A DNA stretch of 63,521 bases, the filler included, from Collodictyon triciliatum (Eukaryota), in NCBI GenBank assembly GCA_043381765.1. It is 7 parts of 7 records of this genome, joined end to end, with 100 filler letters (N's around TTAATTAATTAA, not from the genome) between each part and the next. Parts side by side here need not be neighbours in the genome. Positions count along the whole stretch, not along the records: positions 41,161 to 51,348 come from JBHJMP010002762.1; 6 more parts are not named here. The stretch is one strand, 5' to 3'. The notes below the pieces were generated by a model. That model ran no database searches and was not told the origin of the DNA. It saw nothing but the letters and a program-made list of their open reading frames with translations. Every line of letters starts with the position of its first letter. Within the stretch, counting starts at the first letter, position 1. Shown here piece after piece: positions 44,801 through 48,500 of the stretch. A program made the translations under genes and the position numbers.

Positions 44801-45554
44801 TTATGTATGTTTAGAAGGTACATCTTCGTCACAACCTACGTCACTGTCTACGGACAACGGATTCTTATGTCCGGAAGGATATTACTGCCCGATGGGAAGT
44901 TCGCAACCTATCCCCTGCCCAGTAGGGACACATAACCCAAGGACAGGACAAGACGATGCGAGTGCATGTGATGCATGTAATGAGAATAGCTTCAATCCCT
45001 ATATCGGACAGCGTAAATGTTTCCCCTGCGGCGCTTCTTCTGTTTCAACCCCTGGCTCTTCTACATGCTCATGTATTGGAAAATATCGTGCATATCAACC
45101 ATCAGATCAATCGTGCATTTGCGTGGCCGGGTATGAATTTTATGACGCGAATATAGTCCTGTCTACTGGCGATGGAACTGTAGACTGCCAACCTGTTGTC
45201 TTGAATAGATGCGGGTCTAATGAGGTTCGGCTATCTTCAGGGCTATGTGTTACATATTCAGACAGCTCATGCAACCAATTTTGTCCAAGCGGCGGAACAT
45301 TAAACGCTGATTTAGGCGTATGCACATGCCATAATAATCCCACTGTGGATTCTATATGCAATGCAGCCTGTCGAATGAAGCAAACAAGTTTGAGTGTCAG
45401 CGGAAATATGCTGTCAGTCATCGATCCAAAGACGGGAGAAGTCCTTAACTCCAATTTATTCAATACCAGCTGGATCGATACCAGTTTGAATTGCTCTGAC
45501 GCCACGGTTGGCTCAGCTTGTCGAGTTCAATACATTCAAATGGGCAACCTTTGA
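41883..45554 (+). CDS. N-terminal fragment ORF (1223 aa) of the Cys-repeat protein, terminated by the insertion
   Basis: Open frame of tandem Cys repeats ending QYIQMGNL-stop; the stop lies inside the inserted element. Confidence 0.7.
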   Translation: MGYYCPAGTASSTQYPCPAGTYNPYQKQTQCYSCSPGRYCASSSTSSVTGLCKAGYYCTYNSTTQFGGNTERESTPCQEGYYCEEGTELRIPCPVGTYNPSKGAGSSDSCLPCPAGFFCAITGLSSPSGPCEGGYFCPQGTQSANSTLNICPEGHYCPVGSSQITKCPIGTYQDQKRSAECKKCPAGYYCDEVALTEFKLKVCPSASYCPPGTERSNQYLCPIGTYSNLTGGRDASICSPCEPGHYCDKSGLTSHADDRKCESGYYCVSGSPTKTPIQTTLSGGLCPKGYYCPEGSSYPPTICPKGRFSISVGAKSESDCIGCPPGRYCDGSNYLITEAPKCSEGYVCRGNATVSNPTDKITGYECPAGTYCPSGSYLETPCEPGRWNPNRGKGTCENCPAGFFCNRIRVIEPDICPPGFFCTSGLRNPLPCPAGSYGTLSGATSHNNCTRCPAGKYCIGDGSTSPSGECEAGYICYSGSGSSTPTSRDPGNVLADSNRKNGLCPTGYYCQKATITPQQCPPGTLLSPFGSRDVSDCQLCTPGFYCSEGGQKSPSGRCPAGYFCPQGTASPSGNPCPVSHFCPVGSSVPTPCFQGTYQNKTRQLDCAKCPAGFYCPLTEMNTPVVCPVGFYCPESSVEPIMCPPGTFSRTNQIANASSCISCPPGKFCTGGSVTGSCSGGYYCKGASPTATPSDDSILSQNGPCPPGYFCPDGSSQPLSCPEHLFTFYFGAANMSECLPCPPGYECSKRQIFTKPCRPGYFCESRNDPTPCPAGTFQDSVQSSSIGDCNDCPVGFFCNRTGVIIPAACPPGFYCPIRSVTPLPCPAGTYLDSPFGYSESDCAECSGGTLCPPGSSYAENCPVGYYCPPGVTSPISCSPGYFCPGGITNCNPNMVGLCPCQEGHYCPASTNVQISCPQYHYCPPKTAYPIPCPRGSIGLNTTSRISFEDACEYCPAGFYSDRPSSDKCTKCPPGYVCLEGTSSSQPTSLSTDNGFLCPEGYYCPMGSSQPIPCPVGTHNPRTGQDDASACDACNENSFNPYIGQRKCFPCGASSVSTPGSSTCSCIGKYRAYQPSDQSCICVAGYEFYDANIVLSTGDGTVDCQPVVLNRCGSNEVRLSSGLCVTYSDSSCNQFCPSGGTLNADLGVCTCHNNPTVDSICNAACRMKQTSLSVSGNMLSVIDPKTGEVLNSNLFNTSWIDTSLNCSDATVGSACRVQYIQMGNL

Positions 45555-45573
45555 ATCGAATAAAGGAAAAAAA
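45549..45573 (+). mobile_element. Mini-retroinsertion copy G (young), inside the coding exon
   Basis: CTTTGAATCGAATAAAGGAAAAAAA flanked by perfect 17-bp ACATTCAAATGGGCAAC at 45532-45548 and 45574-45590. Confidence 0.92.
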
Positions 45574-45581
45574 ACATTCAA

Positions 45582-48500
45582 ATGGGCAACGAAGGATTCA
45601 AAGGGGTCTATGACGCACCCATGAGTCATGTTAAAGAGCTCATCGCATCCCCATCTGGGAATATGTCAAGAACATACGCAAGAGCCAATTCTCTACCGGG
45701 CATTCTAAATCCTGTGACTTGTTTAGAAACCAATGAAGGAATAATGTTTGAATTGACACCAACCTCTTATCCAATTTACAAGAAAGATTCTCTATACAAC
45801 ACGAATAAAAACTATGATTGGGGTGCATTCCGCTCTCTAGCAGAGAAAATGAAATCCAGCTCCAAACCTCAGCTGTTCATTGTTTCATTTTCAGAGCCTG
45901 GAATATACGTTTTTGAGGACTCATCCAATCCAACGAAAGAAACAGTCATATCAGTGATGCAAACTGGACAGCAATGCCCCACCGATTCTCGAATCAACCC
46001 TTTAGCAACTTCGACTTTGACAAAATCAGGCGTCTCCAAAAACTCCAAACTATTGCAATCACCAGACTGGTCATTGGTTGGGTTACTCGTAGGGATACCG
46101 ATGGGCGCCATTCTGCTCTCATTAGCATCAATGAAGACATGGAAATCTCGCAATGCAAAAAAGAAAATATCACAGCAGCCTCTTTACAGAGAAATGAGTG
46201 TCGAGAAAAATCTTGGAAAATATGTGTCCAAGGGTTCACAAATCATTAAACAGCAAAAACTCAACCCTTCTGCTTCTATGAACGAGGCAATTCAGTATGA
46301 TCATGAATTTTGGGATTTCCCTCAACAAGCGACAATTGAAGGATTCGGGATAGAACAGCTATACGAGAAACTGAGTGAGCAAACGGAAAAGGTTACTGCA
46401 GAAATAGCAGATCAATCAACACAGGTGAAAAATATGTATGATGCGCTTGTTCAAGAAACAGAGCAGCTCAAATCAGTTTTGTCATCCAAGATGGACACCA
46501 TAACCCGGCATACTGATATGGTCCTTGGGATAGGTGATATGGAAAAAAGGATGGGTGATTTGAAAGACGAAATTGATCGCAGACGCGCTATAGCAGAAGA
46601 TTATGCTATCATTATACATTCATCTAGTCAAGCACATCAATCAGAATCAACTCACAGAGAACATTTTGAGAGACTTGAATACGAAATCAATGATGCAATC
46701 CAAGAGTGTGTCAGAGATATATCTCTGCAGTATCATCTATGCATTGAATCAAACACTAATGACTACACTTCGCTTCAAGAAAGCATTCAACGTTTGGATA
46801 ACCACATAAATCAGATTTTTATTGAACGAGACAAAGAGTGTCGTAGGCGGTGCATATGGCCATCTGTCAATGAACCGTTGGGCTGTCCATTGGTTGACCC
46901 GGAAACAGGTCGTGACATACCTCATGAATATTTATTCGATATGAACGGACGTCTGAAAGAAATGACTGGATTGATAGAAAGACACCAAAGAACAGGTCTC
47001 TACTTCCCCTCCGTTGGGTCCTTGATGAGAATGCCAAGCGGCGAGGTATACCAAATACCGATTGGCTCTATGTGCATCCACCCCGATACTGGTCGCGTTA
47101 TACCGATAGAAGGTTCTGTTTGTGTTGACTTGGGAACTGGAAGACTTATCTACACCCATAATGTCGAACCTGAATATGTCCCCACGGGCAATGTCGTTCC
47201 ACTTTTACTCAACGTGATAAACCCATCCACCGGGCGAATGGTCGACACACCCTTCAAAAAATATGCCAATAAGTTCCCGTTTCCTTCCTCAATTATTGAC
47301 CCTCGATCTGGCCAACTGGTTCCAATTTTGGGTGTCGCCTTGGACTCATCAAGCGGCTCATTAGTCCCTATCGGGGGAACAATGCTTGACCCTGTAACCA
47401 AACTTATTCGGCCAATTGTTCCGGGTTACATATATCAGGACTCAACCTCTCTATCCATTCTTCCTATCGCATCCGTTATATTAGACGTAGTGACTGGAAG
47501 GGCCATTCCAGTCGGTGGGCAAACGACAGACCCAAGGTCAGGACTGGGTGTTCCAATTACATTCGGAATGCATTTTGTGGAAAACATGAGTGGAAAAGAG
47601 GTTCCTGTTGCTGGATGTTTCCTAGATCCGATGCTCAACCAGACTGGTCCAATGTACGGCGGTGAAGGGATGCTCTTGGACAATCTTGAGATGGATGCTG
47701 TTGCTTCCTATGCTGCGGTGCTTGACGAATGGAAGGAGAACATGAACAACTTCGCGAAAGGATTAATCAATCTACAGGAAACGCACCAAAAACTGATGCA
47801 AGACACTTCATCATCTCTCGACCCCTCTTCCTTGAATTGGATTATATCAGAATACAAAAAAAAAATCTCTAGACTGGGAGTCGATTTTGACTCTAGCAAC
47901 AGAAAATTTGAAGCCGAAGCCAAATCAAAAAAATCTTTGTTGGATAATATAAGACGCAAAAATAAGGAGAGTATAGTGAGATGTATTCACCAAACAAGAA
48001 GTTATGAAGTTGAAAACAAAAAACTCTACGAGACCGGTGGTGTCGAAGGCTATATAAAGGATAACCGGACACAAGTCGATATTCCAATCATGATAGGAGA
48101 ATATATCAAGGACCGGAATACTGGTCTGATGTGCCCCATCCTCGGGGTACATATCGAGCCAGGATCTGAGAAAATAATACCACTAGCTGGGACCATGGGA
48201 GATCCGCTCACAGGAGAGACTGTCCCGATCATTTTGGGAAATCGCATGCGAGATGTAGAGACAGGAAAAATAGTTTTTATAACGGGGGTTTATCTTGACG
48301 AAGAGACTGGTCGAGTTCGTCCAAAGTCTGATCAATCATCGGAACATAGACTTTTATGGAAGGAGCAACTATCTTTGCTTGAGAAGGAAATTGCTTCAAG
48401 AAACTCATACGACAGGAGAGTGAGGGCTATATGCGCTGACCTATCAAGAATAGATACCCAAATGATCGATAATTTGCAAAGGTCCATTGATACTGATGAA

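Follow-up and report, generated by a model that had tools for sequence, protein, structure and literature searches.

The subject of this analysis was a 42-nt insertion at positions 45532-45573 of a 63,521-nt stretch of DNA from the eukaryote Collodictyon triciliatum (assembly GCA_043381765.1; the whole stretch is hereafter called the window). A giant gene for a single-pass membrane protein thereby acquires two stop codons and a poly(A) signal. It separates an upstream open reading frame (ORF) of 1223 amino acids (aa) from a downstream ORF of 1940 codons (45582-51404), which enters a block of N at 51349, so that its true end is unseen. The interrupted gene and the insertion contain the following features:

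41883-45554 (+): upstream ORF, 1223 aa, Cys-rich ectodomain of Ephrin_rec_like repeats (PF07699, E 5.1e-22, five stretches), stopping two codons into the insert
45532-45548 (+): 5' copy of the 17-bp target-site duplication, identical to 45574-45590 (17/17)
45549-45566 (+): last 18 nt of the 3' untranslated region (UTR) of an L1-like long interspersed nuclear element (LINE), containing AATAAA (45559-45564), TGA and TAA; 26/26 match to the tail of the source locus L001, including the first A's
45567-45573 (+): run of seven A's (eight with 45574), read as the retroposed poly(A) tail; L001 has ten A's at the same place
45574-45590 (+): 3' copy of the target-site duplication, with the copied ATG at 45582
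45582-51348 (+): downstream ORF with a juxtamembrane ectodomain of about 165 aa, one hydrophobic span, and a long tail of repeats and coiled coil, read by eye

The two copies of the 17-nt sequence ACATTCAAATGGGCAAC were identical throughout, and the 25 nt between them were found to be CTTTGAATCGAATAAAGGAAAAAAA. This 17-mer occurred twice in the window even when up to two mismatches were allowed, whereas shuffled sequences gave an expectation of 0.04 and none of 100 shuffles reached two occurrences. Within the insert, TGA (45552-45554) and TAA (45561-45563) both lay in the frame of the long ORF, and the run of seven to eight A's (45567-45574) directly preceded the 3' copy of the duplication. 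The ATG at 45540 was duplicated at 45582 in the identical frame. The 42 nt could be excised by 18 equivalent cuts, all of which gave one identical joined sequence, and the in-frame length of the insert is a one-in-three coincidence. In particular, none of the 18 cuts had the ends GT..AG or GC..AG, and only one (45534-45575) had AT..AC ends, without a U12-type 5' consensus; a spliceosomal intron or introner was ruled out on these grounds. An initial annotation of this locus had described a 25-nt element plus a perfect 17-bp target-site duplication, together adding 42 nt, with two in-frame stops and a duplicated ATG from which the same frame restarts. It had also stated that removal of the 42 nt restores the frame and that no GT-AG pair excises them, and each of these descriptions was borne out. 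Its further view that AATAAA had been supplied to the gene was correct as to the presence of the motif but not as to its role: the insert is a LINE 3' end, and AATAAA and the A-run are therefore a poly(A) signal and a tail that belong to the element.

With the insert set aside, the frame was found free of stops and shifts over about 9.5 kb, and the true start of the exon holding the upstream ORF lies 5' of its first ATG. The break was located about 165 residues ahead of the membrane span, and the upstream product would be an ectodomain lacking an anchor. A Pfam search with the downstream ORF revealed no family. A read-through query, in which stops were written as X, revealed four homologues among 3569 candidates (P0003-P0006; 1782-4527 aa; 24-37% identity), one of which is a hypothetical protein of a fish. 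This search covered lengths of 1734-5520 aa, a range above that of shorter split forms. As evident from BLASTP and tblastn comparisons, all four homologues crossed the junction in one piece, and P0003 and P0004, the closest two, showed a gap across the insert when all were aligned together. Pfam searches of three of the four homologues gave weak Ephrin_rec_like matches alone. An ancestral pair of split genes was ruled out within the lengths searched, because all four homologues ran through the point as a single alignment; this was the outcome of a comparison that the initial annotation had proposed.

The same annotation had raised gene fission as an alternative, into an ectodomain and a membrane and cytosolic part. 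Both halves would then be expressed separately, the first as a secreted ectodomain ending at the new stop and poly(A) signal and the second from the copied ATG. Such an arrangement would be consistent with the AATAAA that lies within 5 nt of a stop and is followed by the A-run, and with the copied in-frame ATG at 45582, from which the downstream ORF is intact up to the N block. However, none of the four homologues found at lengths of 1734-5520 aa was split at the site, the copied ATG simply belongs to the duplicated target, and nothing pointed to a promoter or a transcript of its own for the second half. Additionally, eukaryotic translation initiation follows the scanning model, under which reinitiation after a 1223-codon ORF would be unlikely. 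We thus consider gene fission very improbable.

LINE-tail stubs in the window and their source element

That the insert is the 3' end of a LINE, present in several copies, was not recognized in the initial annotation. When the window was searched with the 25-mer, five matches were found at up to three mismatches, compared with 0.00 expected. A 17-nt core gave seven matches compared with 0.68 expected; the largest value in a shuffled sequence was three, and none of 100 shuffles reached seven. Each of the seven copies (hereafter stubs) was read, and the flanking repeats were scored by script. The stubs are listed below by the position of the core:

core 45550 (+): flanking repeat 17/17, perfect
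core 57949, 57941-57966 (-): second young stub; flanking repeat of 13-16 bp, perfect
core 5865, 5864-5889 (+): stub; flanking repeat of 11 bp, perfect (13 bp with one mismatch)
core 15994, 15990-16019 (+): stub reaching 4 nt further 5'; flanking repeat of 17 bp with one mismatch
core 16758, 16746-16779 (+): older stub with a decayed A-run, extending about 12 nt further 5'; flanking repeat of 14 bp with one mismatch
core 12914, 12912-12937 (+): older stub with one mismatch in the 17-nt core; no flanking repeat found by the script
core 4469, 4459-4488 (-): oldest stub, with three mismatches in the core; flanking repeat of 11 bp with one mismatch

The stubs shared a common anatomy, in which 18-30 nt ending in ...AATAAAGG were followed by a short run of G and A finishing in A's and then by a repeat of the preceding sequence. 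Six of the seven were each flanked by an independent direct repeat of 11-17 bp, and the repeated sequence was different at each copy. By quality, two repeats were perfect over at least 13 bp, one was perfect over 11 bp and three had one mismatch; one copy had none. An A-run of four to eight A's ended six copies, the copy with core 16758 having the decayed run, and the 5' ends differed by 0-12 nt. The element content of all seven copies was no more than about 30 nt, and their density was about one stub per 9 kb over the roughly 62 kb of the window. A generic scan for flanking repeats plus an A-run revealed no other family of micro-retrocopies in the window (two known stubs and one low-complexity match were returned). 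The nick contexts at six stub sites were T|A, A|A, T|A, T|T, T|T and A|T, which are T/A-rich and too few for a test. A DNA transposon or miniature inverted-repeat transposable element was ruled out, since the length of the duplications is not fixed (11-17 bp), an A-run forms one end and the 3' UTR has no significant fold.

When metagenome contigs were scanned for the tail pattern, a single locus was revealed, L001 (1157 bp), and the corresponding scan of viral contigs gave no match. The minus strand of L001 finished in ...CACTTTGAATCGAATAAAGG followed by ten A's, and was identical to 45549-45574 at 26 of 26 positions. Upstream of this tail, L001 contained a 5'-open frame of 202 aa that matched the Pfam family zf-RVT (E 1.5e-7; 32.4 bits against a cut-off of 27.5), described as 'zinc-binding in reverse transcriptase', which lies in the C-terminal part of LINE ORF2. 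The LINE copy in L001 (205-1157, minus strand) was frameshifted in ORF2 relative to P0007, a protein 98% identical to its frame, which continued the frame beyond that of L001; the LINE 3' UTR is therefore shorter than about 100 nt. The extra 5' bases of the longer stubs continued the L001 UTR (15987-16019, 33 nt, 90.9%; 16749-16779, 31 nt, 90.3%), from which it follows that the stubs are extreme 5' truncations and not a separate unit. The rest of L001 was absent from the window; blastn and tblastx revealed nothing beyond its last 33 nt at most.

A full HMMER search with the L001 frame revealed 14 relatives, of which ten were fragments or shorter proteins (72-309 aa). The other four were full-length (1226-1275 aa; 29-38% identity) and were matched near residues 960-1150, close to their C-termini. 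Exo_endo_phos and RVT_1 scored above the cut-off in all four, and zf-RVT scored below it in three; this predicted domain set is the ORF2 architecture of L1-type LINEs. A separate search of the L001 frame against longer proteins gave no match. Folding of the L001 3' UTR revealed no significant structure (z 0.32), and Rfam revealed a tRNA alone in the window, with no ribozyme or small-RNA family that would explain the 5' end of the stubs. The 18-nt tail string had no match in a literature text search. The LINE family is undescribed, and the kind of insertion is itself known, being a textbook footprint of retrotransposition.

The uninterrupted gene in related organisms and its earlier state

A run search returned 21 sequencing runs, of which two small ones from one study, X1 (0.64 of sampled words) and X2 (0.46), contained most of the stretch. 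The remaining runs had small shares and came from metagenomes and metatranscriptomes of lakes or other fresh water. Contigs of X1, X2, X3 and X5 were aligned to 43000-48000 alone at 90% likeness, a range that lies 3' of the upstream exon model described below. X1 record 3 (1609 nt, 18 letters different) and X2 record 9 (1479 nt, 23 letters different) both joined 45531 to 45574 and omitted exactly 42 nt. The 17 letters at the skip fit either side, and the skip equals 45532-45573. The contig depths for this skipped form were about 19-21 in X1 and X2. No contig bridged the filled form among the matches listed for the four runs, where contigs drop rare variants; X3 and X5 covered six and nine of 30 bins, respectively, and did not bridge the site.

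The X1 and X2 contigs differed from the window by 1.1-1.6%. Their loose ends matched what we take to be the SMART template-switch oligonucleotide, and an X1 contig ended at 47865 in a loose end of poly(A) that coincides with ten A's in the genome (47856-47866). The loose ends and the poly(A) end on genomic A's together indicate that both runs are most likely complementary DNA (cDNA). The end at 47865 most likely reflects internal oligo-dT priming and not a poly(A) site, since it sits on the genomic A10. Organisms that differ from the window by 1.1-1.6% thus express the gene without the interruption.

The initial annotation had proposed examining RNA for skipping of the 42 nt and had named precise removal of the insert from RNA as a possibility. 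Exact skipping was indeed found in the cDNA-like contigs of relatives, and we read it as an empty site rather than as excision. Were the 42 nt also present in the DNA of these relatives, they would have to be removed precisely at the RNA level or by a jump of the reverse transcriptase (RT). The uninterrupted form comes solely from cDNA-like contigs, and RT is known to produce artefacts by jumping from one direct repeat to the other, both of which are compatible with such removal. However, none of the 18 cuts has GT..AG or GC..AG ends, and X1 and X2 both yielded the skipped form alone. We also found contigs of X3 (three records), X1 and X2 that matched the stub alone and had unlike flanks (loose ends at 45544, 45552 and 45582); by their match to the stub, these are further copies of the LINE-tail family. 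Stubs are thus retained in cDNA-like contigs of the same runs, which indicates that they are not systematically removed from RNA. Since the contigs are divergent, simple absence of the insert from another lineage suffices, and removal from RNA is extremely unlikely.

Among the 40 differences listed of 66 between the window and X1/X2, 22 substitutions were non-synonymous and 18 synonymous. With 2497 non-synonymous and 758 synonymous sites, these 40 gave an omega of about 0.37 (binomial p 0.002 against neutrality), a rough figure in favor of purifying selection during most of the divergence.

Three short exons with Cys repeats could be read 5' of the long ORF, at 41208-41358, 41443-41515 and 41716-41848. 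The third was out of frame with the long ORF, the conserved stretches being separated by 7 nt (41846-41852), and neither a usable GT..AG pair nor an acceptable intron was found at 41846-41852. Additionally, the modelled junction 41358|41443 spanned a TGA. A 25-nt intron at 41826-41850, which would heal the frame conflict, was rejected, since a perfect CxxCxPGxYC repeat motif would be lost with it. The frame conflict and the TGA may be real lesions, assembly errors or the product of a wrong exon model.

Taken as real, these two upstream defects would suit a different history, in which the same LINE stub entered a pseudogene that was already decaying, as a neutral late hit. That history would have to accommodate the approximately 9.5 kb otherwise free of stops or shifts and the omega of about 0.37 on the 40 differences. 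Moreover, two lesions in about 0.36 kb of upstream exons compared with none in 9.5 kb would be a very uneven distribution for neutral decay. A late hit in a pseudogene is accordingly possible but rather unlikely. The initial annotation had proposed either a fresh knockout or a hit in a dying gene; the insertion with its target-site duplication is supported by the LINE tail, the homologues and the X1 and X2 contigs, and the apparent frameshift at 41846-41852 may reflect prior damage.

Mechanism of insertion and comparison with known systems

We consider it very likely, as regards both the identity of the element and the mechanism, that the 42 nt arose from one event of target-primed reverse transcription (TPRT) of an L1-like LINE with extreme 5' truncation. 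The order of the steps in TPRT is established for L1-type elements. Here, the LINE endonuclease would have nicked the gene, and reverse transcription would have begun at this nick, with priming on the poly(A) tail. Just the last 18 nt of the 3' UTR, including AATAAA, would have been copied before the 5' end was joined, and a staggered second nick would have left the 17-bp target-site duplication. The match of the insert to a LINE tail, the dispersed copies with their independent flanking repeats, the unbroken homologues and the unbroken form expressed in relatives are observed, and from them we infer this order of steps, as well as the loss of function. The insertion is young, as judged from the perfect duplication, the perfect tail and the lack of any other stop in about 9.5 kb. 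It is also specific to this lineage or haplotype, or polymorphic, because precisely these 42 nt are missing from the contigs of X1 and X2. The interrupted allele is most likely truncated or null, yielding at best an anchorless ectodomain fragment. The odd features of the site (in-frame stops, AATAAA and a duplicated ATG) all follow from the one mechanism of retrotransposition.

Several observations weigh against this interpretation. The apparent frameshift at 41846-41852, 3.7 kb upstream, and the TGA at the modelled junction mean that the insertion may not have killed the gene. L001 ends before the RT domain, and the content of apurinic/apyrimidinic endonuclease (APE) and RT in the source element is taken from relatives of 29-38% identity. 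The uninterrupted form comes from cDNA-like contigs of organisms 1.1-1.6% different, not from DNA. L1 endonuclease prefers to nick at sites of the TTTT/AA type, which the nick contexts of the six copies, few as these sites are, resemble loosely at most, and the A-run is short (7-8 A's). Finally, the insertion might be heterozygous, somatic in origin or due to a rare assembly problem. An error of assembly, or a variant (somatic or heterozygous) unrepresentative of the germ line, might be suspected from the spacer blocks that interrupt the window about every 10.29 kb. However, a perfect LINE tail with an A-run and a perfect 17-bp duplication is not something that an assembler creates, and at least one DNA molecule must have had them; we regard this explanation as very unlikely.

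We compared the insertion with 5'-truncated L1-type insertions made by TPRT, which resemble it in the poly(A) tail, the variable target-site duplication (11-17 bp here), the 5' truncation, the element's own AATAAA and the disruption of an exon. The source element is also similar in the zinc-binding domain at the C-terminus of ORF2 and in having relatives with APE endonuclease and RT. Some exonic 5'-truncated L1 insertions cause human disease, and human L1 insertions average about 1 kb. In contrast, 18 nt were copied here, and about 30 nt or less in all seven copies of the window. The closest precedents are thus ordinary 5'-truncated L1 insertions, and the difference here is one of degree. The stubs also resemble short interspersed nuclear elements (SINEs) and other partners that share a LINE tail, having a common LINE 3' end mobilized by the LINE machinery. 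Unlike SINEs, they are bodiless and have no room for an RNA polymerase III promoter, and their 5' ends vary by 0-12 nt into the LINE 3' UTR, as in truncation and not as in a defined unit.

Two further published systems were compared. A poly(T)-only insertion in exon 25 of NF1 is read as a severely truncated Alu or L1 (PMC3219598). This case is similar in that a product of retrotransposition, reduced nearly to its tail, lies in a coding exon; as described there, no element sequence is left and the source cannot be named, whereas here 18 nt identify the family. Short retropseudogenes derived from mRNA, of 300 bp or less, are recognized by a poly(A) tract and target-site duplications and are explained by a template that is truncated or degraded either ahead of reverse transcription or in its course (Terai et al., PMC2831318). 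Many cellular mRNAs serve as sources in that account, whereas the tail of one LINE dominates here.

All seven copies in about 62 kb were stubs, and at least three more were found in three other data sets, compared with one long copy. We suggest tentatively, as an idea that is more doubtful than not, that this L1-like LINE may retrotranspose here almost solely as stubs of an 18-30-nt tail plus poly(A). If this is true, the bias would be too strong for ordinary random 5' truncation and would suggest that TPRT has a distinct mode here, either abortive or template-cleaving. Tiny cassettes with a poly(A) signal, and with stops in one of three sense frames, would then be scattered through genes in their thousands, and the stub mode would be a recurrent source of truncation alleles and possibly of fission alleles. 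The shortness and density of the stubs, if they hold genome-wide, would bear on the processivity or the fate of the template in LINE reverse transcription, and standard repeat annotation would miss most insertions of the LINE-tail family. The present site offers a clean, dated case in which a LINE stub interrupts an exon of 3100 codons in a little-known freshwater eukaryote, and, as the intact allele is expressed in close relatives, it could be used as a presence/absence marker.

Other features of the window

Blocks of 44 N, a 12-nt spacer with stops in all frames and another 44 N were present at 10196-10295, 20493-20592, 30770-30869, 41061-41160, 51349-51448 and 61639-61738. They recur about every 10.29 kb, and the window may consist of joined pieces of about 10.2 kb or be masked. 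Further runs of N were found at 1451-1919, 19536-19597 and 56919-57301.

Immediately 3' of the N block in which the long ORF disappears, a tandem 12-nt repeat with a unit close to TTTTTTATTGTC occupied 51449-51560. It was followed by short exons that resembled LIM zinc fingers by eye and by an ORF with a DA1-like peptidase domain (52643-53476; PF12315, E 9.7e-18), which was the sole Pfam match from eight long ORFs searched outside the giant gene. The DA1-like ORF had no match among longer proteins, and an Atlas look-up returned plant and bacterial DA1 clusters alone. The LIM/DA1-like region is probably a separate gene, because Pfam searches of three of the four homologues of the giant protein gave no such domains.

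A tRNA-Asp gene (GTC; 25194-25265, minus strand) adjoined an open frame of 632 codons (25418-27313, minus strand), which appeared by eye to encode a multi-pass membrane protein and matched no Pfam family. Exon-like frames separated by AT-rich introns were also recognized by eye. They resembled alanine aminotransferase (3-368, minus strand), a nucleotide cyclase with a P-loop ATPase (2583-7179, plus strand), a PCI-domain protein (13378-13719, minus strand), a cupin/JmjC protein (21972-22283, minus strand) and a class I/II aminotransferase (34179-34706, minus strand). Long purine-rich and other simple repeats, open in several frames, were located at 35950-36370, 53500-54100 and 61825-63100.

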